64,000 bases of DNA, taken from positions 6,390 to 70,389 of the forward strand of contig JAFYXH010000009.1 in the NCBI GenBank assembly GCA_017546315.1. The letters run 5' to 3'. This DNA is from Alphaproteobacteria bacterium. Its GTDB lineage: Bacteria; Pseudomonadota; Alphaproteobacteria; RF32; CAG-239. Shown here one piece after another: positions 684 through 64,000 of the stretch (position 1 is the first letter of the stretch; the number at the start of each line of letters is the position of its first letter). The notes beneath the pieces are model-generated. The model worked only from the letters and a program-made list of their open reading frames with translations, made no database searches and was not told where the DNA came from. The position numbers were made by a program, and so were the translations under genes.

Positions 684-3155
684 ATGAATAAATTTATGAA
701 ATTCTTAAAAAACTGTATGCCTTTTATCATTGGTGGGTGTGTTTTATTTTATTGCTCAGATGCTGAAGCTTGGGCTTGTGAATGGTGCCAAAAATTAAAA
801 GATTGGGTTGTTGATAAGGCTAGTGAAGTAATATTAAATGAATTGGGTATTGATTTAACGGTTAATTGTAATCCTCCAAATCCAGATTCAACTGTTTGTT
901 TGTTCTGCCCGATGTTTAAGATTATCTTTAATGCAGGAAGTATAATGGCGCACAAATCTTATGCATCGTTTGGTGTTGGATTAGCGCAACTTCTACTTGT
1001 GTTTATGGGGGTTTCTATTGCTCTTATTTTATTAAAATATCTATCATCCATGGGGGCAAAAGATGCAAGTGGGCTGATGAATGATTTATTGAAAAAATCT
1101 TTTCTCTGTTGCACGATATTTTACATACTAAATTATAATTATTATAATGTGCTTAATTTAACAATATCCCCTCTTTTTAGTGCGATGATGGATTTTGCCG
1201 CATCTGGTAGCGGAGGATCTTGTCATGGTGCTTCAGGTATTTATGGAGGAATGGGTGGTGGTAGTTCTACTGCAGGAATTGGAGGTGGAATACCAAGTTC
1301 GATTGGAACAGCTATTGTTTGTACTGTAGAAAATATTGAATTTAAGATTAAATATTTATTTGAGTTTGGCGATTGGGCATTTTGTAGAGGTTGTGGCCCT
1401 GATAGATTGTTATTTATATTGCCTCATCCAATATTTATTATTGACGGTTTATTGCTATATATTGGAGGTATTTTCTTTATGGCTTCATACCCTTGGATTA
1501 TGGCTGATGCTGTTTTGCAATTAGGACTTGCAATGACATTACTTCCTTTTGCTATTTGTGGTTTTGCATTTGCTGGGACTAAAGGTTATTTAGGTAAAGT
1601 TTTACAATGGATTATAAACTCTGTTTTTGTATTTGTGTTTATGTCTATTGTAATTGAATGTATATTAGAATATATTGGAAGTGTTTTATCTGCAGCATTA
1701 GCAAATGGTGATTTATCTGATCCTAAGCTGATATTTACAGACCCCAACAAAGGTATAGCGTTTTGGGGGCCTAATATGTTGTATATTATATTTATTCTTG
1801 CGATTGGTTTAACTTATATGCCTTTTGCTAAAGATTTGGCTAAACAACTTTCTAAAGGTTCTGGTGTGGGTGCAGCACAAACAATTGGTAAAGAAGTAAC
1901 CGGAAAAATAGATGACCTCACAGATAAAGCGGCTCACAAAGTAAGACATGCAGCTGTTGAAACAGGTAAATGGGCAGGAAGAGGCATAAAACGAGGTAGT
2001 AAAGCAGCTGTTAGAATCGGAATAGCAAAAACTGTTAATACTTTTGGGACTTCTAATGGTTCTGGTAAATCGATGCGAGTGCTTGGAATGAAATTTTCTA
2101 CCGAAAAGGACGGTAATGGAAGAGATGTTTTAACTCGAGAATGGGTGAACCCTATCAACGGCAGAAGACATGTGATGATTTCTGATAAATACTCTACAAC
2201 ATTTGAAGAATACACCAAAAGTGGTGTGCAAATAAAATCTGACACTAAATTTAAACATAATTTTATGAATGAGCATTTATTTGATGAAAATGGTGATGTA
2301 AACGTTGGTGCAGTTAATGCTATTATGAATTCTCCAAAGGCATTGGCTGATCCTAGATACAGAGAAAAAATCATGACACAAATTGCAGTAAATGCAATGA
2401 AGAAAAAGGGAAAACATGTTGGCAAATATTATAAAGATAGAAAAGTTGTTTATGATCTTTCTGACCCATATAAAATATATATTGAACAAACCGATTATAC
2501 AGGAAAAGTAACTCGTTTTGCAATGAGAATCGACCCTGCTACTGGGAGAATGGCAGTTGGTGCTAAAGTAGAAAGACTAAACAAAAAAAAGATGCGAAAA
2601 ATTAAAAACAGAAAACGCTTCTTAAAGAGGTTTGGACGAGACTTAGGTGGGGGAGAATATGCTTTCAAATCATTTTTAACGGGGACTGTCAGAGAAATAA
2701 AAATAGACTCCCAAACTGGAAGAGAATATTATGTTAAAACCCGAAGAAGACGTTTCTTGTTTTGGAAAACAAAGACTATCATTGTTAAAGACACAGAAAA
2801 TGCCGAGCAAGATGGATTTTTTGATAATGCCTATATGGGGTTTGATACTAGAAAAAATGCTAAAGGAAAGGAAAATACCTATTTAAAATATGGAGCCAGA
2901 GCAAAAGCGGGACATACAGATGTTCGAGATGCAATGAGTGCAGGCAAGATTATTGACGACAAAGGAAACATTGCAGATGATTTGGACATAAGCAATTCTA
3001 ATTGTAAACCCGAAAATGACCTTGTTTTTGGTTCAGATATTTTGATAGATCTCGGTATATGCCCAAGTGGTACAAATTCTCGTGATTTTCTTAAAAATCT
3101 TGGTGCAAGAGCTGCCTCTGAAAGATCAACAAAATTGAATACTAAACATCTATAA
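684..3155 (+). CDS. VirB6-like T4SS membrane protein with Cys-rich N-terminus and ~400-aa basic hydrophilic C-terminal extension
   Basis: RBS AAGGAGG at 672-678. Signal-peptide-like start, CxxC motifs, VirB6-like TM core (aa ~245-385) and long Lys/Arg-rich tail, as in extended Rickettsiales-type VirB6 proteins. Confidence 0.65.
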   Translation: MNKFMKFLKNCMPFIIGGCVLFYCSDAEAWACEWCQKLKDWVVDKASEVILNELGIDLTVNCNPPNPDSTVCLFCPMFKIIFNAGSIMAHKSYASFGVGLAQLLLVFMGVSIALILLKYLSSMGAKDASGLMNDLLKKSFLCCTIFYILNYNYYNVLNLTISPLFSAMMDFAASGSGGSCHGASGIYGGMGGGSSTAGIGGGIPSSIGTAIVCTVENIEFKIKYLFEFGDWAFCRGCGPDRLLFILPHPIFIIDGLLLYIGGIFFMASYPWIMADAVLQLGLAMTLLPFAICGFAFAGTKGYLGKVLQWIINSVFVFVFMSIVIECILEYIGSVLSAALANGDLSDPKLIFTDPNKGIAFWGPNMLYIIFILAIGLTYMPFAKDLAKQLSKGSGVGAAQTIGKEVTGKIDDLTDKAAHKVRHAAVETGKWAGRGIKRGSKAAVRIGIAKTVNTFGTSNGSGKSMRVLGMKFSTEKDGNGRDVLTREWVNPINGRRHVMISDKYSTTFEEYTKSGVQIKSDTKFKHNFMNEHLFDENGDVNVGAVNAIMNSPKALADPRYREKIMTQIAVNAMKKKGKHVGKYYKDRKVVYDLSDPYKIYIEQTDYTGKVTRFAMRIDPATGRMAVGAKVERLNKKKMRKIKNRKRFLKRFGRDLGGGEYAFKSFLTGTVREIKIDSQTGREYYVKTRRRRFLFWKTKTIIVKDTENAEQDGFFDNAYMGFDTRKNAKGKENTYLKYGARAKAGHTDVRDAMSAGKIIDDKGNIADDLDISNSNCKPENDLVFGSDILIDLGICPSGTNSRDFLKNLGARAASERSTKLNTKHL

Positions 3156-53613: not shown

Positions 53614-54603
53614 TTAGGTTATAGCTGTTACACCTCTTATATTACCATCTCTTACAATTTGAACTACATGTAGTTTTCTACGCATTTCTTGCATTGTTTT
53701 TTCAACATTTATATGTGGTGTCTGCTCCATTATACACTTTATGAAAGATTCATAAGCTGCTTCAGGACTTTCGGCGTGAATTGTCGCCATGCAGTTATCG
53801 TGTCCAGATCCCATTAAAGCCCATATTGCAGATGCATTCTTATTTGAAATCTCACCACCTATAATAGCATCGGGGGTAATACGTTTAATTAAGTCTATTG
53901 CATCAGCATCACTCATACCTTCGGTATCTTTATTTTTGCTTCCTTTAACACGAGATAAAACGATATGAATACGATTTGGATGTGGCACTTTTAATTCTCT
54001 AGTATCTTCTAGAGTTACCACTCTTTTATGTATATCTAAAAGTTGCAATAAGTTATTTAAGAATGTGGTTTTACCTGTTCCGGTACCTCCGCTAACTAAA
54101 ATATGATCTCCTCTTCGCAAAGCTAATAATAAACGCTCATATGCATCATCTGGGTCTTTTATGTTTTTCAAGGGATTTATTTCTTTTAATTGTTTACCTT
54201 GTTCCAAACCATAATCACCAAAACCAAAAGCAACATCATCAGAATACAAACGTATTGCGATAGCTATCCCCTCTTTATCTTCAAAACCATAACGAATATT
54301 TCTACCAGCAACACCCGTAAAACGATGTCCTCCTGGGATGTCGGTATAAACTGTTGGAATACCATACATTGGATCAAATTCTTGGTCATTAAGATTTGCT
54401 ATGATATATAGTAAATTAGTCAAATATTCTTTAGTCAATTTAGGATCTTTATAACTAACCCAAGGAAAAGCTCTTTTGCCTCGCAAACGCAACCAAATTT
54501 CTCCTGGTTGATTTACAGCAACTTCTTCTAAATTATCTTGTTCATACCAATATGACAATGGCCTTAGAACTGAACTCAATACTTTATCTTCTTGTTTTCC
54601 CAT
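53614..54603 (-). CDS. virB11: VirB11-family T4SS traffic ATPase
   Basis: EEVAVNQPGEIW, Walker A GGTGTGKTT, Asp box LEDTREL, Walker B PDAIIGGEI, His box SGH...TIHA. Downstream of a VirB10-domain gene. Confidence 0.85.
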   Translation of the reverse strand: MGKQEDKVLSSVLRPLSYWYEQDNLEEVAVNQPGEIWLRLRGKRAFPWVSYKDPKLTKEYLTNLLYIIANLNDQEFDPMYGIPTVYTDIPGGHRFTGVAGRNIRYGFEDKEGIAIAIRLYSDDVAFGFGDYGLEQGKQLKEINPLKNIKDPDDAYERLLLALRRGDHILVSGGTGTGKTTFLNNLLQLLDIHKRVVTLEDTRELKVPHPNRIHIVLSRVKGSKNKDTEGMSDADAIDLIKRITPDAIIGGEISNKNASAIWALMGSGHDNCMATIHAESPEAAYESFIKCIMEQTPHINVEKTMQEMRRKLHVVQIVRDGNIRGVTAIT

Positions 54604-54677: not shown

Positions 54678-57600
54678 TTAGAAATTTAAATCTATTTCAC
54701 CAGCATCTTCTTCATCTTCTTCTTGAGGCATTACTATTGCTGAACCATCAGTAGATGGAGGTGGCAAAGCTCTTATTGGTCGATTTTGATTTCTTTGATT
54801 ATTGTTTTGAGGTGTTTCTTCTGCTATGAGTGGTGTATGCTGTGGTTGATTTTGGGTGTTTTGTTGATTACCCATAACAACTCTTTGCTGATTATTGCCG
54901 GTTGTAGTTGATTTAACACTAGAGCTACCATCCTCATCAATGAGAACATTTTCTACATTTCTCCTACCTGTACTTTCTACACCTTCTTCAACATCTTTAG
55001 CTGATCGCAACCATAAATCACTCATTGGATAAATGATAATTCTTGTTCCAGCAGGAACATAAGTTACCGCTGCTATTTCTTTTTTCTTATCGATAATTTC
55101 TTGCAAAATTTCATCCATTTTGCTCATAAATTGTTCTCTTGCATCTGATGCAGCCTGTTGTTTTGAATTCTCTACTTGCGCATTTGAAGAACTTTCTTCA
55201 TCTGCTGCCATCATGTAAGTTATTGCAGAAGTTACCATTGTTCCTACGATTGGTAGTGTATATTTTTTAACAAGTTGCTCATCTACATATCCAAGAGCAC
55301 CACCTCCACGACCTTGGCTGTCTCCAGTTTGAGCACTATTGATAAAGAAGGATACTCCATCCGGACGAATAATTCTACTCCAACTGATTTCTATTTTTGT
55401 TCCACCACTTGCTCCATCAAATCGACTTCTTTCACCGATATCTTGAAGACCACCGATAACTCTACTTCCGGCTGGAATAATAACATTACGCCCACTATCT
55501 CCATAAACATTACGTTCTACAATAGCAGTAACTGGCGCTGAACCTAATGATATGAGTGATCTAGCTAACACTGCAGGTATAGGCTTATCTGCTGTTATCA
55601 CGTTACTCATATCAACTCTTAGGGTTGAAACTTGTCTTCCTATACCCCAATCGTTTTGCCATCCATCTATTGAAGAAGCATTAAATCCACTTTCTATTTT
55701 AGCACTTGTTAATTTTTCTCTTCTTTGCTGATGATATTGAGACAATATTGCAGCTCTTTGCGGGTTATAACGTCCACCAGGACCAACACCACCGCCAGGT
55801 CCAACATTTGTTATATCATTTTTACTTGAATGAGGTGAAATTGTTGCTCCACTTGCAACATTATGCCACCAATTATCATTTGCTGGTGTTTTCTTTCTAT
55901 TTTTACGTTGTTCTATATTACCAATGGTATTTCCCTCTTCATCTATTATTTGACCATTTTCTGTTTGACGACCAACGATTTTTCCATCTTCACTAATAAC
56001 AACATTATTCTCATATACATCACCAATATACTTACCACCTGGGGTAATAGCAATACCTATGGCTTTATGATTTAATTTTGTTTCCATTACTTCTTTATCT
56101 TCTTTAGTTAGAGCCTGTTGATTATCAGAAGATGAAATATCTTTATTATTTTCTCCATTATTGTTTTCTTGTCCTAATTTTTGATTTTGCCCCACATAAT
56201 TATTACTTTCATAAGCACCTTCTAATTGAGATTTTTCACTTTCTTTATATTCATTATTTATAGAACCCTTATCTTTTGAGGTTGGCAACAAATTATTTTT
56301 TTCTTGATTGCTCTTAGAATTAACATTTCCATCTTTTAGAGTATTATCAATATCATTGAGATTATCATATTCATCATATTGATTTTGCAACTCTTGCTCT
56401 TGGCTTGATTTAGAATCCGCTCTGTTATTGCCTTGCTTAGATGATGATGGATGTGCAGGATGTTGATAATATTGAAGATAATGAGCTATTGCTATTACAT
56501 TGTTAGCGTTGTCTAAAATATTTCCGTTATTATCAAGCGTTCCTACTTTTATATTTTTATTATTTACAACACTACCATCTAATTTCAAGTATCCAATGCT
56601 TTTGTTATTTTTATCTTTTAATGTATAATCTCTATATCCTCTTGCTACAACATTTTGTCTCTTATCTAAAACGAATCCATTATAAATTGTTCCAACAACA
56701 TCTCCCATTATGCTATAAACTTTACCATTTTTAGCAATGTATCCGATGGTATTATCTTGATTATCATAAACATATAAATCGTATAAAGCGTATCCCTTTT
56801 TACCATCTAGAGTTTGAGCTTCACCATTAACATTTACACTTCCAATGATGTTTCCATTATCTGCAATAATATTACCATTTATATCTACTCTTCCTAGATA
56901 AATATTATTATTATCAAATGCTATTGAATAATTAAACAATATACCGAGTTTTTTTCCATCTTTTGATATTACATCACCATATATATTTGTTGATGCTAAT
57001 TGCACACCACTAATATCCAAAATACGACCAGATATATCTGTATATCCAATAATTTTATTATCTAACCCCATTACGGTTGCAAACTTTACAGTTCTTCCAA
57101 TATTCTCACCTTGACTATTTTTTATGAATCCTCTTTTGTCTTGACATCCTAAAACTTGATTTTGATAATTTAGAACATCACCTAAGCTATTGCTTGTTCC
57201 AAGGACTTCTCCCTTATCATTGGTTATGATGCTTGAAGATATAATATGCCCAATAATTTCTTCTCTATCATTTAATACCTGATCATTGGATAAAACTGTT
57301 CCAATATATGTATTTTGAGCGTTTCTAATTTCACCATTATTAGATACTACACCTAAATATTTACAGTCTTTTGTTACGGCTGTTGCAAATGGAAGTGTTG
57401 TTCCATATAGTGCTCCTAGATTATCCATAACATATTTATCAGAACCTATTTTACCCAATGTTTGTTTATTGTTTTCAACATTTCCTCTAAATAGGTTAGC
57501 TCCAAGAAAATCTCCATTTATGCTTATGCTAAAAAAGTCATTTCCACTTTGCTGGTTAAATATAATATTTCCCTCTAAATCTATTATAGAATTGTTAGGT

Positions 57601-59162
57601 AAAATTTTAGATATGCGATTATTTTTATTATCTATTATTGTATTTATTGGGGTTATATAACCTAAATTATCACCCATAAAATTAGTAGCATAGATTGGAG
57701 TATTGGTTTTTCCTAGGATTTTATTATTCTTATCAATCAATACTCCATTTGCATCTAATTTAGATATTTCATTAAGAGATGAATTTTCGCTATCTCCCTT
57801 AACTGATGTATATGTTAAAATATTACCCTCTGGACTATAAACACTTGAAAAACCGATACTATGACCACTTATTTCTCCTGCTTGATTAAAAACATATCCA
57901 TAAGGGGAAATTGTATATATTTCGGCATTTTTATCTAACTGGCTATTTATACCGCTTACGCCTAAATATTTATTTGCTTTATCAAAGATAAGACGTGTTG
58001 ACAAAGTCTTTCCTATTTCACGTCCTTTATAGTCAAAAGCTCTGTCTTTTAGCATATACCCTTGTTCTAACCCATCTAGTGATACTACTTTACCACCAAC
58101 TGAGGCATTTGCTCTTACTTTTCCTAAATAATCAAAAATTGGCCCTTGTTTACTAATGAAACCAATTTGCTTACCTTCTTTATCAACTACATCACCGCTT
58201 GCGTTTATTTTTCCAACAACGTTTCTTCCTTTAACAATTACACCATTTGGAATAAGATACCCTAAGAAACTTCCATCTAAAGCTGTAGCTGTTGCATTGA
58301 ATTCTACTCTAAAACCAATAATGTTTCCGGATTTATCAACTATTCTATCTTCATTAACAGCAAAAGAAGTTGTTGTACCTTTATCAATCACATCACCATT
58401 ATAACTAATTACACCCAAATAATTTCCATTAAAATCAAATGCGTATCCACTATTTACAATATGACCGATTGCCTTTTTATCTTTATCATATATATATCCA
58501 TTTGCGTAAAGATTACCTACTACATTTTTATTTAAATCAAATACTTTTCCATCTGGAGCAACGCTTCCTAAAAATTTTCCATTAAATGAAACTACAATTT
58601 TGGATAGCATCAATCTACCAGATAACTCTAGTTTATTATCATCTTTTGAAGGAATATAGATATAGCCATTAGATGTTGCAACTCCATTACTATCGCCTTT
58701 TAAGCTATAAAAATATCCATCTCCGGAAACTCTACCAATAATCTTACCGCTATCGTTAAATACTAAACCTTGTGATATCACACTTCCTAAAATATCATAA
58801 TTATCATTTACAACTATGCCTTGTGGTAATACTTTTCCTATCAAAGTATCATTTTCGGCGGTTACTGTTCCATCATTATTAACTTTTCCTAAGATGCTAT
58901 TATTATAAGATATGGCAACACCTTGAGGAACAATACCTCCTATTACATCTTTTTTATCATTTATAACATAACCATCTGCTGTTATATGCCCAATAATCTC
59001 ATTATCTGCATTAATAACTGCTCCATCAGGAATCACTTTTCCTAATAAATCTCCATTAAAACTGAGCGCACTGATGTCTGTAGCATTAGCATTAAAAATT
59101 ACATTTATAGTAAATATAAAGCTTAAAATTACTTTATTTAATTTTGATATTTTAAAATACAA
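54678..59162 (-). CDS. virB10: Giant VirB10/TrbI-domain protein with signal peptide and ~900-aa beta-hairpin-type repeat region
   Basis: C-terminal TrbI motifs IPAVL, VTAIVERNVY..SGRNVIIPAGSRVIG, ISWSRIIRPDG, DSQGRGG..GYVD, YVPAGTRIIIY (~55000-55613). Likely start TTG 59162 after GGAGG, giving a signal peptide ending ANA. Confidence 0.8.
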   Translation of the reverse strand: MYFKISKLNKVILSFIFTINVIFNANATDISALSFNGDLLGKVIPDGAVINADNEIIGHITADGYVINDKKDVIGGIVPQGVAISYNNSILGKVNNDGTVTAENDTLIGKVLPQGIVVNDNYDILGSVISQGLVFNDSGKIIGRVSGDGYFYSLKGDSNGVATSNGYIYIPSKDDNKLELSGRLMLSKIVVSFNGKFLGSVAPDGKVFDLNKNVVGNLYANGYIYDKDKKAIGHIVNSGYAFDFNGNYLGVISYNGDVIDKGTTTSFAVNEDRIVDKSGNIIGFRVEFNATATALDGSFLGYLIPNGVIVKGRNVVGKINASGDVVDKEGKQIGFISKQGPIFDYLGKVRANASVGGKVVSLDGLEQGYMLKDRAFDYKGREIGKTLSTRLIFDKANKYLGVSGINSQLDKNAEIYTISPYGYVFNQAGEISGHSIGFSSVYSPEGNILTYTSVKGDSENSSLNEISKLDANGVLIDKNNKILGKTNTPIYATNFMGDNLGYITPINTIIDNKNNRISKILPNNSIIDLEGNIIFNQQSGNDFFSISINGDFLGANLFRGNVENNKQTLGKIGSDKYVMDNLGALYGTTLPFATAVTKDCKYLGVVSNNGEIRNAQNTYIGTVLSNDQVLNDREEIIGHIISSSIITNDKGEVLGTSNSLGDVLNYQNQVLGCQDKRGFIKNSQGENIGRTVKFATVMGLDNKIIGYTDISGRILDISGVQLASTNIYGDVISKDGKKLGILFNYSIAFDNNNIYLGRVDINGNIIADNGNIIGSVNVNGEAQTLDGKKGYALYDLYVYDNQDNTIGYIAKNGKVYSIMGDVVGTIYNGFVLDKRQNVVARGYRDYTLKDKNNKSIGYLKLDGSVVNNKNIKVGTLDNNGNILDNANNVIAIAHYLQYYQHPAHPSSSKQGNNRADSKSSQEQELQNQYDEYDNLNDIDNTLKDGNVNSKSNQEKNNLLPTSKDKGSINNEYKESEKSQLEGAYESNNYVGQNQKLGQENNNGENNKDISSSDNQQALTKEDKEVMETKLNHKAIGIAITPGGKYIGDVYENNVVISEDGKIVGRQTENGQIIDEEGNTIGNIEQRKNRKKTPANDNWWHNVASGATISPHSSKNDITNVGPGGGVGPGGRYNPQRAAILSQYHQQRREKLTSAKIESGFNASSIDGWQNDWGIGRQVSTLRVDMSNVITADKPIPAVLARSLISLGSAPVTAIVERNVYGDSGRNVIIPAGSRVIGGLQDIGERSRFDGASGGTKIEISWSRIIRPDGVSFFINSAQTGDSQGRGGGALGYVDEQLVKKYTLPIVGTMVTSAITYMMAADEESSSNAQVENSKQQAASDAREQFMSKMDEILQEIIDKKKEIAAVTYVPAGTRIIIYPMSDLWLRSAKDVEEGVESTGRRNVENVLIDEDGSSSVKSTTTGNNQQRVVMGNQQNTQNQPQHTPLIAEETPQNNNQRNQNRPIRALPPPSTDGSAIVMPQEEDEEDAGEIDLNF

Positions 59163-59163
59163 A

Positions 59164-62100
59164 TCAGTTCCTCCGATTTTGTGCGACTTCATCTAATGCG
59201 TAGCCAGAAACTTTGTTGCGGCTATTTATGTATGAGCCATTGCTTTTTAAATAGCCAATCTTTCCATTCGTCAAACCACGAACTTCTCCGCTTGCAGATA
59301 ATCGTCCAATATATTTACCATCATTACCTAATATATTAGCACCTATTTTATATGTATGTCCTATAATTTTTCCATTGTTATCTACAACTAAATTTGATGA
59401 TATTAAACGACCAATTACGGTTCTTGCTTCGTTTAATACTTTTCCATCTAAAGATACAAAGCCTATAACTTTATCTTTTTCGTTAATTACAATATCACCT
59501 TTTACAATTTCACCAATCAAATTACCTTTATTATCAGATACTTGACCTTGAGTTAGAACTTTTCCTATTTTTTGTTTATCTGAAGAATATACATTTCCAT
59601 CCATTCCAACTACACCTATAATTTTACCAGAATAATCGAGAACAACACCTCTTTTTATAATACTATAATTGTTATTTGTTATTCCTCCTGGAAGTGCTGT
59701 TGTTATGATATTGTCTTCTAAACTTATGATATCACCTAAGGCATTGATGTATCCTTGAACATTTCCTAAAACATCAATAACAAAATCCTCTCTTATGACT
59801 TCACCAATTATTTGTTTGTTTAAATCTAGTATGTGTCCATCTGAGCTTACTATACCTGTTGTTTTGCCATCTACGTCTATAACCTTTCCGTTTTTGCCAA
59901 CATAGCCAAGATATGAGCCGTCATATCCCATACCAACACCTGTTTGAACAACGCTTCCTCTATATACACCTTTGCTATCAAACATTTGCCCTTTAGCATC
60001 TACTTTTCCATATATTTTACCCAATATATCTATTACTTCTGCATTATCATTTACAAACCCTATTATATCTCCGTTGAAATCAACGACATTACCTTTAGGC
60101 AAAATATTTCCAATTTTCTTATCATATATACCCATTCCATCTAGCATAAATTTATCTATTGCAGCACCTTTGTTGCTGTAGACATATCCATCTGCAAATA
60201 AATGTCCTATGATATTTCCATTAGCATCTATTATAATATTTCTTTCAGGTAAAATAACTCCTTGAATTTCTTTTTTAGGATTAACAATAATACGATTTTG
60301 CATAATTGTTGTATTTGGCATTATATCTGTACTATTATAACTTACGTTGGATAAATTACCTATAAATGTAGAATTAACATCAAAAGCTTGTGTTTTATCC
60401 ATTATTTGACCAATTATAAAGCCATCTCTATTTAATATTTCACCTTCTAAATTGGTGCATCCAATTGGTTTGGCGCCTGAGAATATCATTCCATTTGGAT
60501 TTAAGGTTCCCATAACTTCACCGTTATAGTATAAACCGTATCCTGGTTCATATACTCTTCCTATTTTTCTTTCTTGGTTGATTACTGTACCATCAGGATT
60601 TACACATCCGATATAAGCACCTTGCTCATTTTTTACAAAGCCATCAGCACCTGCTTTTCCTATGATATTGCATTGTTCATCTCTTACCCATCCTATTTTT
60701 GCAATATCTCCAATAATTTCACCTTTATCATTAACGATACTACGATCAAATAACATTCTAAAGCCTGTGTCTTTGCCGTCTTTTTTTACTTTACCGTCTC
60801 TATCTACATATCCTAAATTTTTACACCCCCAACCAACAGCTTTTCCACCAAGAACAGCTTTACCTATTATATTTCCACCTTCATTTGCTTTTATGAGAGA
60901 GTTTGGCAAAACTTTACCAATGATTTCTTGACGAGAATTTATAACCTCACCTTTGCTATTGATTATTCCTAGACCGTATCCATTTGGTGATAATGCAATC
61001 AAATCTTTACGAATAACCGCACCGATACGAACACCTTTAGAACTTATTATATTGCCATTTTCATCTACAATACCAATTACAACGCCATCAAAATCGTAAA
61101 CTTTTCCATCTTTGCCAATATAACCAATTACTTTTCCTGCATCATTTACAGCCAAATTAGAATAATCGCCGACCAAGCCTATAATATTACCATTTTGATC
61201 TGCAGCAAATTCCATTGTGTCGCCTTTTTTACCTATAACATTGCCATTTTTATCTACAAGTTCGCCCTTTTCATTGATTTTTCCTAAGACGTTCCCTTGG
61301 AAATCTCTTGCAATATTATTTTCATCTACATAACCAATAACCTCTCCTGTATCGCTAAGTAGTGCATTATTTTTTACAACATTTAGTTTGTCATTTAGTT
61401 TATTTTGTAATTGGCCAATGACTTTACCATCTGTTCCATAAACAGTGCCATCATCTCCCACTACTCCTATAACTTTACCATCATTTCCGATAACTAGTCC
61501 ATCTTCATTAACATATCCGATAATATTACCATTTTCATCAACTACTACTTTTCTGTAATCTCCTGCTTTACCGATAATATTGCCATTTACATCATGAATG
61601 GTTCCATCTTCACCAAGATAACCGATTAAATTGCCATTAAAATCTCTTACAGTTCCATCATCATCAATGTATCCAATAACATTGCCATTTTCATCTAAAG
61701 CTAAACGTTTACTAATATCTGCTTTTCCCAAAATTTCATCTGTTAAGCCTATTACGTTACCATAGTCATCAACATAGCCTATTAGTTTTCCATTTTCAGC
61801 ATATACTTTACCGTCATCTGATACATAACCGATAACATTACCATTTTCGTCATATGCTAAATTTACTTTATCACCAACTTTGCCAATTACTCTTCCGTAG
61901 CTATCTGTTATTGTTCCATCTGGATTTGCTTTACCGATCAATTTTCCATTAAAATCATAAACATTACCATTTTCATCAATATAACCGATGACATTTCCAT
62001 CTTTATCAAGAGCTAGTTTACCTGTTTTTCCGGCAAACCCAATAACCTCACCTGTGTTATTTAATATATTTCCATCATTATCAACATAGCCTATAATATT

Positions 62101-63999
62101 TCCTTCAAAATCTTTAACAGCTCCGTTTTCATCTAAAAATCCAATAACGTTACCATTTTCATCAAATGCAAGATTTTGAGCTTTTCCGGCCTTTCCTATG
62201 ATATTACCATTTTCATCTATAATGTTACCATTTTCATCTACTCTTCCTACAATCTTTCCATCTTTGCCGATAACATTACCATTTTCATCTACATAGCCTA
62301 AAATTTTTCCATCTTTATCATATGCTATAAGTGCCATCTTACAAGATTTACAAATAATCTCACCTACTGCAATAATATCCTTTTTGCCACTTAAATAACC
62401 TATAATCTTCCCTGTATTATCATAAGCGATATTATTTCTTTTTAATTCACCTATTGTTTTTTGCTCTTTATTTTTAATTATTTTACCATTTGCACTTAAA
62501 GTTCCGATTACATTATTTTTTGATGCTAGAACATTTCCTTTGTTATCTATTACACCAATTATTTTTTGGTTATTTGCATATACATATTCCAAATTATCAA
62601 CATAACCTATCACTTTATTATTTGGAGCAATCACTACATTATATGGTTTGCTTATTTCTCCAATTAGCAAACCTTTGCTATCTACTGCGTCTTTATTTTT
62701 CTTATATCCTATTATTTTATCATTAAAATCTTTGATAACGTCTTTATCATCTAAAAATCCTATTATTTCGCCATTTTTATTTTTAATAATTTTTCTTTGA
62801 ACACAAGTTTTTCCGATTATTTTGTCTCCGGCTTTTATAACTTCTCCGGCTTCATTTACAAAACCAATTATTTTGCCATTTTCATCTAGCACTTGGCCCT
62901 TTTCATTTATATAGCCAATCACATTACCATTTTTATCTAGTGCAACTTGAGAGAAATCACCAGCTCTTCCTATTATGCGTCCCTTTTTATCAACAATAGT
63001 CCCATCTGGTCTTACTCTACCAATTAGATTTCCTTTAAAATCTTTTACTGTACCGTCTTTATCAATATAACCGATTACATTGCCATTTTCATCATAAGCA
63101 AGTCTTCTCATATTGCCGGCATTTCCAATTTTATCACCGCTTGATGCTACAATATTTCCTTTGTTATCAACAACACCTATTATTTTATTATCTTTGTCTA
63201 TAACTCTTTTCTTATCATCTATATAGCCAATTATATTTCCTTTATCATCAAGAGCTAAATCTCTTAATTCACCTTTTTTACCAATTATACGTCCTTTATC
63301 ATCTACGATATTTCCATTTTTATCAGTTTTACCGATTGTATTTCCATTAAAATCTTTTACTGTTCCATCTTTATCAACAAAACCAATTACTTTACCATTT
63401 TCATCATAAGCAACATTTCTTGATGTTCCGGCTTTACCTATTACTTTATTGTTTGTCCCTATAATGTTTCCTTTATCATCAACAAATCCTTTAATAGCAC
63501 CATTTTTGCCAATTACTCTTTGTTTATCATCGACATAACCAATTACTTTACCAGATGTATCAAATGCTAGAGTTTTATAATCATCACTTGTACCAATTTT
63601 TTGACCATTTGCATCTATAATCTCACCTTTGCTATTGGTCTTTCCTATGACATTACCATCAAAATCTATCACATTACCATCATCATCTATGTACCCGATT
63701 ACTTCTCCATTTTTATCAAGAGCAATACGTTTCTTCTCCATTTTGGGAGCATCATCATCTAGACTTATAATATTTCCATTTTCATCAACATAGCCAATTT
63801 TTTGATTATTATGATCATAAACATTGCCTTTATCATCAATATAACCAATAACATTACCATTTTCATCTATTGCTAGTTTAGAATAAGCACCTGCTTTTCC
63901 GATAATCTCACCTTTATCGTTTATGATATTTCCATCTTTATCAACACGACCTATAATATTACCATTAAAGTCTTTTACTGTGCCATCTTTATCAACATA
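59164..63999 (-). CDS. Giant Gly/Asp/Asn-rich repeat protein, N-terminus beyond the window
   Basis: The frame stays open from ATG 63741 to the edge (...YVDKDGTVKDFNGNIIGRVDKDGNII...). Built almost entirely of D-x-x-G-x-[IV]-[IV]-G units. The stop lies 1 nt from the next start. Confidence 0.85.
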   Translation of the reverse strand, partial: YVDKDGTVKDFNGNIIGRVDKDGNIINDKGEIIGKAGAYSKLAIDENGNVIGYIDDKGNVYDHNNQKIGYVDENGNIISLDDDAPKMEKKRIALDKNGEVIGYIDDDGNVIDFDGNVIGKTNSKGEIIDANGQKIGTSDDYKTLAFDTSGKVIGYVDDKQRVIGKNGAIKGFVDDKGNIIGTNNKVIGKAGTSRNVAYDENGKVIGFVDKDGTVKDFNGNTIGKTDKNGNIVDDKGRIIGKKGELRDLALDDKGNIIGYIDDKKRVIDKDNKIIGVVDNKGNIVASSGDKIGNAGNMRRLAYDENGNVIGYIDKDGTVKDFKGNLIGRVRPDGTIVDKKGRIIGRAGDFSQVALDKNGNVIGYINEKGQVLDENGKIIGFVNEAGEVIKAGDKIIGKTCVQRKIIKNKNGEIIGFLDDKDVIKDFNDKIIGYKKNKDAVDSKGLLIGEISKPYNVVIAPNNKVIGYVDNLEYVYANNQKIIGVIDNKGNVLASKNNVIGTLSANGKIIKNKEQKTIGELKRNNIAYDNTGKIIGYLSGKKDIIAVGEIICKSCKMALIAYDKDGKILGYVDENGNVIGKDGKIVGRVDENGNIIDENGNIIGKAGKAQNLAFDENGNVIGFLDENGAVKDFEGNIIGYVDNDGNILNNTGEVIGFAGKTGKLALDKDGNVIGYIDENGNVYDFNGKLIGKANPDGTITDSYGRVIGKVGDKVNLAYDENGNVIGYVSDDGKVYAENGKLIGYVDDYGNVIGLTDEILGKADISKRLALDENGNVIGYIDDDGTVRDFNGNLIGYLGEDGTIHDVNGNIIGKAGDYRKVVVDENGNIIGYVNEDGLVIGNDGKVIGVVGDDGTVYGTDGKVIGQLQNKLNDKLNVVKNNALLSDTGEVIGYVDENNIARDFQGNVLGKINEKGELVDKNGNVIGKKGDTMEFAADQNGNIIGLVGDYSNLAVNDAGKVIGYIGKDGKVYDFDGVVIGIVDENGNIISSKGVRIGAVIRKDLIALSPNGYGLGIINSKGEVINSRQEIIGKVLPNSLIKANEGGNIIGKAVLGGKAVGWGCKNLGYVDRDGKVKKDGKDTGFRMLFDRSIVNDKGEIIGDIAKIGWVRDEQCNIIGKAGADGFVKNEQGAYIGCVNPDGTVINQERKIGRVYEPGYGLYYNGEVMGTLNPNGMIFSGAKPIGCTNLEGEILNRDGFIIGQIMDKTQAFDVNSTFIGNLSNVSYNSTDIMPNTTIMQNRIIVNPKKEIQGVILPERNIIIDANGNIIGHLFADGYVYSNKGAAIDKFMLDGMGIYDKKIGNILPKGNVVDFNGDIIGFVNDNAEVIDILGKIYGKVDAKGQMFDSKGVYRGSVVQTGVGMGYDGSYLGYVGKNGKVIDVDGKTTGIVSSDGHILDLNKQIIGEVIREDFVIDVLGNVQGYINALGDIISLEDNIITTALPGGITNNNYSIIKRGVVLDYSGKIIGVVGMDGNVYSSDKQKIGKVLTQGQVSDNKGNLIGEIVKGDIVINEKDKVIGFVSLDGKVLNEARTVIGRLISSNLVVDNNGKIIGHTYKIGANILGNDGKYIGRLSASGEVRGLTNGKIGYLKSNGSYINSRNKVSGYALDEVAQNRRN
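61100..63999 (-). repeat. Coding tandem repeat array: 17-aa sub-unit (51 bp) grouped into ~52-aa units
   Basis: For example IALDKNGEVIGYIDDDGNVIDFDGNVIGKTNSKGEIIDANGQKIGTSDDYKT (52 aa) is followed by LAFDTSG...AGTSRN (52 aa). DNA TTACCATTTTCATCTAC recurs at 62225 and 62276. Confidence 0.85.
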
Positions 64000-64000
64000 T

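Follow-up and report, generated by a model that had tools for sequence, protein, structure and literature searches.

Why should a type IV secretion system (T4SS) locus carry a giant gene for a repeat protein between virB9 and virB10, two genes that are normally neighbors? The question is raised by a 64,000-nucleotide stretch of DNA (hereafter the window) from an uncultured gut alphaproteobacterium of the lineage RF32; CAG-239 (GenBank assembly GCA_017546315.1, contig JAFYXH010000009.1, positions 6,390 to 70,389; G000:C2:6390-70389 in the coordinates used here), whose assembly of 0.82 Mb in 14 contigs has 32% G+C and is rated 65% complete. Near the end of the window, a minus-strand frame (59164..63999) codes for 1611 residues and is open at its 5' end at the window edge. 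A first-pass annotation of the window took this frame for a repeat protein of >1600 residues and for an additional component encoded upstream of virB10. The size was real but an underestimate, as the gene encodes 2516 residues once it is extended along the contig to its ATG (L009:554-8104, minus strand). Its identity must be revised as well. With a probability of about 0.8, the giant gene codes for the N-terminal, inner-membrane-anchored half of VirB10 itself, which was enlarged and then split from the remainder of the protein in this lineage. This reading is favored because the non-repeat N-terminal module is homologous to the N termini of single-chain, TrbI-bearing proteins, because these fused relatives are colinear with the giant protein and the product of the next gene (virB10-C) taken together, and because the split recurs at the same point across related loci.

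The principal features are the following, in window coordinates.

59164..64000, minus strand: giant gene (VirB10-N), C-terminal 1611 residues and stop codon; its ATG lies beyond the window at L009:8104 (contig C2:73103)
61000..64000, minus strand: in-window part of the regular array of 52-residue units (protein residues 228-1905), with six strands per unit in the model
62791..64000, minus strand: in-window part of the stretch in which D-F-x-G and non-F units alternate (residues 895-1308), a local 104-residue super-repeat taken from the unit list
59167..60999, minus strand: degenerate 17-residue hairpin region (residues 1906-2516), with a 17-residue period only
59167-59856, minus strand: last 230 residues of the giant protein, a constant module across the family alignment that ends in ...EVAxNRRN
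59170..59174, minus strand: GGAGG ribosome-binding site for virB10-C, within the last codons of the giant gene and kept in 28 of 31 loci
54678..59162, minus strand: virB10-C, 1494 residues from TTG, or 1504 residues from an ATG at 59192
59082..59162, minus strand: predicted Sec signal peptide of VirB10-C, MYFKISKLNKVILSFIFTINVIFNANA followed by TD..., read by eye
55008..55601, minus strand: TrbI/VirB10 C-terminal domain of VirB10-C (PF03743, E 3.8e-28, residues 1198-1395)
53614..54603, minus strand: virB11 ATPase gene, next after virB10-C (T2SSE, E 6.5e-23)

The N-terminal module of the giant protein

From its N terminus, the giant protein comprises a short cytoplasmic tail, one membrane helix, an immunoglobulin-like (Ig) domain of the ASH/PapD-like type, about 30 units of 52 residues, and a degenerate hairpin tail. 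Residues 1-227 are free of repeats and hold the short tail, the one hydrophobic helix, and a beta-sandwich of ~120 residues; the sole hydropathy peak in the entire protein falls at residues 11-41. A short cytoplasmic N terminus followed by a single inner-membrane helix is also the arrangement found in the VirB10/TrbI family. An AlphaFold2 model of residues 1-480, built with 36 orthologues (mean predicted local distance difference test score, pLDDT, 74.5), places the helix at residues 6-36 and the sandwich at residues 83-199, with confident hairpins from residue 227 onward. When compared by Foldseek, the sandwich matches ASH/PapD-like Ig domains, including those of CEP192 (6fvi, E 1.2e-6, template modeling (TM) score 0.64) and HYDIN (2e6j, TM score 0.70). 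Retrieval of the upstream sequence, which the first-pass annotation had suggested as a check, thus supplied both the total length and an N terminus with a single membrane helix and an Ig domain.

A search of 1.84 billion representative proteins with the N-module returned 55 matches, the distant ones being multi-ASH/HYDIN Ig arrays. The module is single-copy in 120 of 121 genomes sampled across the order; another 24 genomes of the genus were covered, and 23 of them have it as a single copy. The public annotation lists the giant gene as a 'DUF3659 domain-containing protein' and virB10-C as a 'TrbI/VirB10 family protein'.

Fused relatives and the history of the split

At the class level, 401 genomes were scanned with the N-module of a fused protein (G027); 21 matched, and 16 loci were examined, with a match in G292 among those left out. 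The N-module locus lies directly downstream of virB9 in 15 of these 16 loci, the exception being L067, and in 11 of them one uninterrupted frame of 1273-2831 residues, lying between virB9 and virB11, has matches to the N-module as well as to the TrbI part. The 16 loci fall out as follows.

L027, L053, L055-L059, L062-L065 (n = 11): fused, with the N-module and TrbI in the same frame
L060, from G240 (n = 1): split
L054, L061, L066 (n = 3): cut by a contig end
L067 (n = 1): weak Ig-only match, with no T4SS genes

The fused forms come from gut and rumen metagenome-assembled genomes of Alphaproteobacteria. The G027 protein presents, in order, a tail, a helix, an Ig domain, 52-residue hairpin units, a proline-rich (PE)n stretch, a few hairpins, and TrbI. 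Fused and split forms can be aligned over the full length of their N-modules, with shared C, W, P, and QNN positions, and the tail motif SSxxYxKKxNR immediately before the helix is common to both. The best high-scoring segment pairs of four fused proteins against the split pair are colinear, the front matching the giant protein and the back matching VirB10-C; in one example, fused residues 14-952 align to the giant protein and residues 890-2328 to VirB10-C. VirB10 relatives that combine TrbI with beta-flower repeats, the repeat family of the giant protein (see below), make up 120 of 120 among the matches listed, of 1189 at E ≤0.001.

The split form prevails in the family to which the window belongs. 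The order virB9, giant gene (N-module and hairpins), and VirB10 gene (hairpins and TrbI) was found in 31 of 31 family loci, 11 of them from the genus (the window's own included) and 20 from other genera, 19 genera in all, with virB11 next wherever the stretch reaches. Frames of ~1100-1500 residues had suggested that a fused form occurs in other genera of the family; this was wrong, as all 20 loci are split. Across the family, the giant protein ranges from 1037 to 3151 residues and VirB10-C from 1268 to 2325 residues, and the number of full 52-residue units per giant varies from 6 to 39 between species. The split extends beyond the family. In G025, from a second family of the order, it falls at the same point, the giant ending in ...GYILNEIVKGKGH and the VirB10-C signal peptide being followed by SEITAINF, and in G240 (L060), from a further family outside the order, the genes are likewise split with a homologous junction.

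In a quick IQ-TREE search on VirB9 and VirB11 (33 rows, namely the loci in which both proteins are complete; midpoint-rooted), split and fused forms are separated by one branch with a Shimodaira-Hasegawa-like approximate likelihood ratio test (SH-aLRT) value of 99, and one change is needed. VirB10 is a single gene elsewhere (PMC9371333), and the simplest history would therefore be a single fission in an ancestor shared by the order and the family of G240. The extra protein of the first-pass annotation thus becomes, on the evidence of the fused relatives, the front of VirB10.

Arrays hold 17-39 full units in the window's genus versus 6-12 in most other genera, and within the family part of the VirB9 and VirB11 tree the branch of this genus is long (0.96 changes per column). 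In one genus (G068, L035:625-7602), VirB10-C reaches 2325 residues with 63 hairpin motifs, showing that expansion is possible in either half. In G020, the antisense strand of the giant gene contains an 842-residue open frame (L030:11155-13683, plus strand), which probably reflects the biased codons of the repeats instead of a gene. Finally, the upstream virB8 copy of G025 is present as two adjacent frames of 202 and 123 residues (L028:4021-4990), which could reflect a frameshift or an assembly error.

The junction between the two genes

The junction itself is conserved. On the upstream side, virB9 immediately precedes the giant gene and overlaps it by 4 nucleotides. On the downstream side, the giant gene ends CGG AGG AAC TGA, the TTG start of virB10-C lies 1 nucleotide past the stop, and the database gene call (P0076) uses this TTG for a product of 1494 residues. 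The first-pass annotation had placed the ribosome-binding site of the next gene within these last codons and had named that gene virB10, and both points are borne out, the first by the GGAGG and the second by the TrbI domain. The sequence cGGAGGaa is present at the same place in 28 of the 31 family loci, with weaker purine-rich runs in the other three; the giants of the family end in ...EVAxNRRN, and the start codon follows within a few bases. Because of the virB9/giant overlap and the Shine-Dalgarno sequence inside the last giant codons, virB9, the giant gene, and virB10-C are read as one tightly coupled unit, an arrangement that would favor equal amounts of the three products.

VirB10-C is composed of a signal peptide, a conserved hairpin module at the mature N terminus, degenerate beta-flower hairpins, a low-complexity linker, and TrbI. 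Its start, judged by eye, appears to be a cleavable Sec signal. In 32 of the 32 orthologues listed, a basic and then a hydrophobic stretch lead up to a small residue at -1 (A, or S in two), with the conserved start (E/D)I(T/S)A(I/L)(D/S)F directly after it; no 19-residue segment of VirB10-C reaches membrane-helix hydropathy. The idea that a programmed frameshift or a sequencing error joins the two open reading frames (ORFs) was rejected, as the gap or overlap varies by species, both frames stay open, and the signal peptide always begins the downstream ORF.

The sequences flanking the split are constant modules, both nearly free of indels. For the last 230 residues of the giant protein, an alignment of 31 sequences has 233 columns and a mean column identity of 63%; for the 230 residues that open mature VirB10-C, the corresponding identity is 67%. 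Complex prediction with these two modules (31-row alignments) gave run scores of 0.42, 0.00, and 0.00, and hence no verdict.

The repeat array

Within residues 230-1800, self-identity is 36.7% at a lag of 52 residues, 31.1% at 104, and 27.2% at 17, the median for all lags being 9.3%; within residues 1800-2516, the 17-residue lag alone is prominent (17.9% versus 8.0%). At the DNA level, Tandem Repeats Finder (TRF) reports a 156-nucleotide period with 67-86% matches. A unit profile defines about 30 well-formed 52-residue units over residues 228-1905, 29 of which survive a full-length filter, and each unit consists of three 17-residue hairpins of the form h-h-D-x-x-G-x-h-h-G. The organization described in the first-pass annotation, a 17-residue sub-repeat present three times per unit of ~52 residues, is recovered by these periods. 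The alternation of two unit types in a super-repeat of ~104 residues, which it also described, holds for only part of the array. Strict alternation of D-F-x-G with non-F versions of the second hairpin is seen in the eight units whose starts lie at residues 895-1257, whereas the eight units at residues 476-894 comprise five D-F-x-G units followed by DKDG, DLNG, and DLNG, and overall the 52-residue lag outranks the 104-residue lag. When 35 six-unit stretches from orthologues were aligned, 'DFxGN' appeared in units 1, 3, and 5 only, in a register chosen freely by MAFFT.

The repeats belong to the beta-flower family (clan CL0395). Against the full giant protein, Pfam returns Bflower_2 (PF21785) at E 1.4e-176 and 576 bits (cut-off 38), PF21784 at 367 bits (cut-off 25), and DUF3659 at 252 bits, and all 33 beta-flower matches in the source genome lie inside the giant gene and virB10-C. 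The part of its description drawn on here presents the beta-flower fold as a shallow barrel built from 8-12 strands, with hairpins as 'petals' that bear a [DNEQ]xxG motif at their tips, and gives no function (PMC10584680). The D-x-x-G turns of the giant protein, for which the first-pass annotation had suggested possible Ca2+ binding, are this tip motif, which is present in every unit listed.

An AlphaFold2 model of residues 997-1308, built from 35 in-register stretches, shows six short strands per unit (pLDDT 84.6, predicted TM score 0.59). VIA alignments on this model fall on single units (model residues 1-51, 50-100, 100-156, and 207-258), a hint that each 52-residue unit may be a small six-stranded domain, or bead; the beads-on-a-string protein envisaged in the first-pass annotation fits the model. 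Alternatively, two units might build one six-petal flower, which would fit the local 104-residue super-repeat. Comparisons with known structures were largely negative. A wide VIA search with the repeat model gave a best Z of 3.7, with none of 48,161 PDB chains at Z ≥5; Foldseek found no global match to the PDB (TM score ≤0.19); and a PDB sequence search with the repeats found nothing meaningful, the best match being a WD40 protein at E 1.2e-4 with no passing stretch. Rhs/YD shells, clostridial combined repetitive oligopeptide (CROP) repeats, and designed propellers were set aside as homologues, as they share a local hairpin-repeat resemblance alone (TM score ≤0.19).

Integrity of the giant gene

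Between G000 and G022, the giant genes are colinear: their alignment has 70.7% identity and, over 2517 columns, 2 gap columns. Of 29 units, 20 find their best match in the positional orthologue. The ratio of nonsynonymous to synonymous substitution (dN/dS) is ~0.17 (dN 0.20; dS 1.19, near saturation) and is alike in the N-module, the array, and the tail; the gene is kept under purifying selection. Contigs of the possible source run tile the gene without a difference, and contigs from two other studies cover it in pieces of 226-650 nucleotides with 0-17 differences and no indels, none spanning the array. The contig joints listed, mostly with 21-26 matching letters on the shorter side (one with 51), lie within repeats and were not counted as length variants, and uncovered parts in X4 and X5 carry no weight. 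As the TRF matches are just 67-86%, the DNA copies of the repeat are diverged and not of the near-identical kind prone to collapse. Four pieces of 155-209 nucleotides with 0-3 differences were found in RNA library X20, which indicates presence in that library and not transcription.

Other components of the secretion system

The link to a T4SS that was noted in the first-pass annotation is supported, given that the N-module lies directly downstream of virB9 throughout the family loci and in nearly all class-level loci. On the same strand, the genes run in the order VirB4 (TIGR00929, E 1.4e-111), unassigned ORFs, two VirB8, VirB9, giant gene, VirB10 (virB10-C), and VirB11. The remainder of a P-type T4SS was found in VirB4, two VirB8, VirB9, VirB11, and VirD4, the last on a different contig of the genome. 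VirB9 (651 residues; L009:8101-10056, minus strand; contig C2:73100-75055) is encoded just past the window end, and its CagX/VirB9 domain is followed at the C terminus by a SPOR domain, which binds peptidoglycan (residues 577-649, Pfam E 3.6e-4); across related loci, its length varies from 484 to 761 residues. Three frames of 446, 458, and 834 residues, located where contig C2 begins (window 1428-1706 and contig C2:2007-3911), give weak TrbL/VirB6 matches below the Pfam cut-off. These weak VirB6-like frames and the duplicated VirB8 recall Rickettsiales-type systems, in which VirB6 is multi-copy. A 1775-residue ORF (L009:11956-17283, minus strand) with no Pfam or NCBIfam match immediately precedes the two virB8 genes; it is kept at that position in 11 of 11 genus loci and weakly in G025, and may be an unrecognized T4SS component.

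Alternative explanations

One alternative accepts the fission and proposes that the freed giant half then gained a role unrelated to channel coupling, e.g. in binding peptidoglycan or lipid and thereby spacing or anchoring the envelope near the machine, without contacting VirB10-C. The SPOR domain of VirB9, which suggests a machine tied to the wall, and the growth of the array in the window's genus would both be in keeping with such a change. However, the giant protein retains the cytoplasmic tail motif of the fused VirB10s, its C-terminal module beside the split point is among its best conserved parts, and the tight coupling to virB10-C is kept. These features fit a continuing partnership of the two halves, and the proposal is improbable.

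A second alternative holds that the giant protein was never part of VirB10 and is instead an independent accessory protein of the T4SS, such as an adhesin, sheath, or surface fiber, that was recruited between virB9 and virB10 and shares only its beta-flower repeats with VirB10. In all 31 family loci it forms an ORF apart, with a start and a stop codon that belong to it alone, Pfam finds no TrbI domain in it, and long hairpin-repeat arrays are common in surface proteins. Yet its tail motif, helix, and Ig domain are homologous to the N terminus of single-chain VirB10s that bear TrbI, and the fused proteins are colinear with the giant protein plus VirB10-C. The giant protein is also anchored by its N-terminal helix, with no outer-membrane or export module seen by Pfam or hydropathy, and nothing supports a role in adhesion in particular: in the fused relatives, the array is fixed in the envelope at either end. 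An accessory origin is about as improbable as the preceding alternative.

That a stop mutation broke a giant virB10 and left a non-functional, decaying upstream piece would explain why the two ORFs together equal one ancestral gene, but is scarcely credible for a frame that is intact at 1037-3151 residues in 31 of 31 loci from 19 genera, has a dN/dS of ~0.17, keeps its terminal module and Shine-Dalgarno junction constant, is followed by a downstream half with a conserved signal peptide (judged by eye), and is split in at least three families.

A proposed two-chain VirB10

If the giant gene does encode half of VirB10, the following sequence of events can be envisaged. The ancestral form, as kept in other gut alphaproteobacterial families, would have been one chain composed of a tail, helix, Ig domain, beta-flower array, linker, and TrbI. 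A single fission inside the hairpin array would then have yielded two genes. The product of the first, the giant gene, would have kept the tail, helix, Ig domain, ~30 units, and conserved hairpin tail, and that of the second, virB10-C, would have gained a Sec signal peptide and retained hairpins, the linker, and TrbI. In the present-day machine, the tail and helix would preserve the contact of VirB10 with the inner-membrane and ATPase side. VirB10-C would be exported by Sec and build the outer-membrane core with VirB9. Because both ends of the array are pinned in two membranes in the fused relatives, the array would be periplasmic, a chain of beads that might scaffold or sheathe the secretion channel. 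Finally, the halves would rejoin non-covalently through their constant terminal modules, such that the inner-membrane end could keep communicating with the outer-membrane pore; this last step is plausible at best, with odds that reach even only on a generous view.

Several points weigh against this picture. By Pfam, no TrbI domain is found in the 2516-residue giant protein, which on its own is therefore not a member of the VirB10 family; it is classed here as a half separated from VirB10 instead of a protein of the TrbI family. A protein-database search for full-length relatives of 1383-4403 residues scored none of 574 candidates, and a search for shorter ones returned 22 short-contig fragments only; because the relatives on record there are such fragments, that database is unable to show full-length orthologues, and whole genomes were used instead. 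The polarity of the event, fission and not fusion, rests on the outgroup argument, the tree being midpoint-rooted and from a quick search. Cleavage of the VirB10-C signal was read by eye and not predicted by a program, and the total length of the array is that of the assembly. There is also a difficulty of scale. By our estimate, ~44 extended beads would exceed the width of the periplasm several times over, and a simple straight spacer therefore cannot be right. The arrays would have to double back, coil up, or run sideways, and could surround the channel as a cage or skirt. The periplasmic spacer of the first-pass annotation comes close to the favored reading.

Taken to its full extent, the proposal is that VirB10 functions here as two rejoining chains that provide a tether or cage of ~4000 residues per protomer, that covalent continuity is dispensable, that each bead is a three-fold variant of the beta-flower, and that this machine is the first functional setting for the fold. 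This compound version is speculative, and we consider it more apt to fail in one of its parts than to hold in all of them.

Comparison with known systems

Canonical VirB10/TrbI proteins, e.g. A. tumefaciens VirB10, pKM101 TraF, and R388 TrwE, share with the giant protein the position between virB9 and virB11 and the bitopic N terminus, the TrbI domain residing here in the partner gene. Canonical VirB10 is ~380-400 residues long. By comparison, the present form is ~10 times longer (2516 + 1494 residues), includes an Ig domain and ~130 beta-hairpins, and is divided over two genes, with an outer half that has a signal peptide instead of a membrane anchor. VirB10-like proteins are described, in the portions of the account cited, as crossing the whole envelope from one membrane to the other (PMC9371333).

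Two enlarged VirB10 homologues, CagY and DotG, are the closest functional analogues, since both combine a conserved TrbI end with long, variable repeats. The repeats of CagY are of a type unrelated to the beta-flower units. Helicobacter pylori CagY is likewise a VirB10 with long internal repeats ahead of a conserved C-terminal domain, as outlined in parts of two reports (PMC9371333, PMC6761968); unlike the split form, it is one chain, and its repeats are altered by in-frame recombination between strains, whereas the giants of two species here, G000 and G022, are colinear but for 2 gap columns. DotG (IcmE) of Legionella and Coxiella has a TrbI C terminus, a variable repeat middle, and a length that differs by species, from 1000 to >1500 residues, in the sections consulted (PMC6761968), a parallel to the 1037-3151 residues of the giant protein alone. 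DotG is also one chain, in contrast to the two chains here, and its repeat type, the pentapeptide repeat, is absent as a family from the Pfam matches of the giant and window proteins.

The beta-flower proteins presented in the part of the original description drawn on here are single small domains with 8, 10, or 12 strands and 4-, 5-, or 6-fold symmetry (Pfam PF21784, PF21785, and PF21786; Durairaj et al. 2023, PMC10584680). The arrays of the present system differ in comprising >100 hairpins in 52-residue, three-hairpin units (~50-residue domains in the model) and in forming part of a defined machine. The rvh T4SS of Rickettsiales is likewise an alphaproteobacterial P-type system with duplicated VirB8, several VirB6-like genes, and scattered parts, and its VirB10 is listed as an ordinary single-copy subunit in the portion of the source consulted (10.1101/479196); one VirB9 and one VirB4 were found in the 65%-complete genome studied here.

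A literature search, with subscription journals outside its coverage, found no paper linking VirB10 with beta-flower repeats or with gene fission. Repeat-enlarged VirB10 proteins are already known in CagY and DotG; new here are the beta-flower repeat type, the combined size of ~4000 residues, and the split gene.

Implications for VirB10 and type IV secretion

VirB10 is central to models of type IV secretion, in which it is thought to act as a continuous transducer of energy from the inner to the outer membrane. If the proposal is true, covalent continuity of VirB10 would be dispensable for this coupling. The beta-flower fold, without a function in the portions of its 2023 description drawn on here (PMC10584680), would also gain a concrete machine in which it can be studied. 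An order of uncultured gut Alphaproteobacteria appears to present a natural experiment, in which VirB10 was enlarged ~10-fold with beta-flower beads and cut at a fixed point in some families and left uncut in sister families. A comparison of the split and fused forms could reveal whether chain continuity matters for coupling, as well as the role of the long periplasmic arrays.

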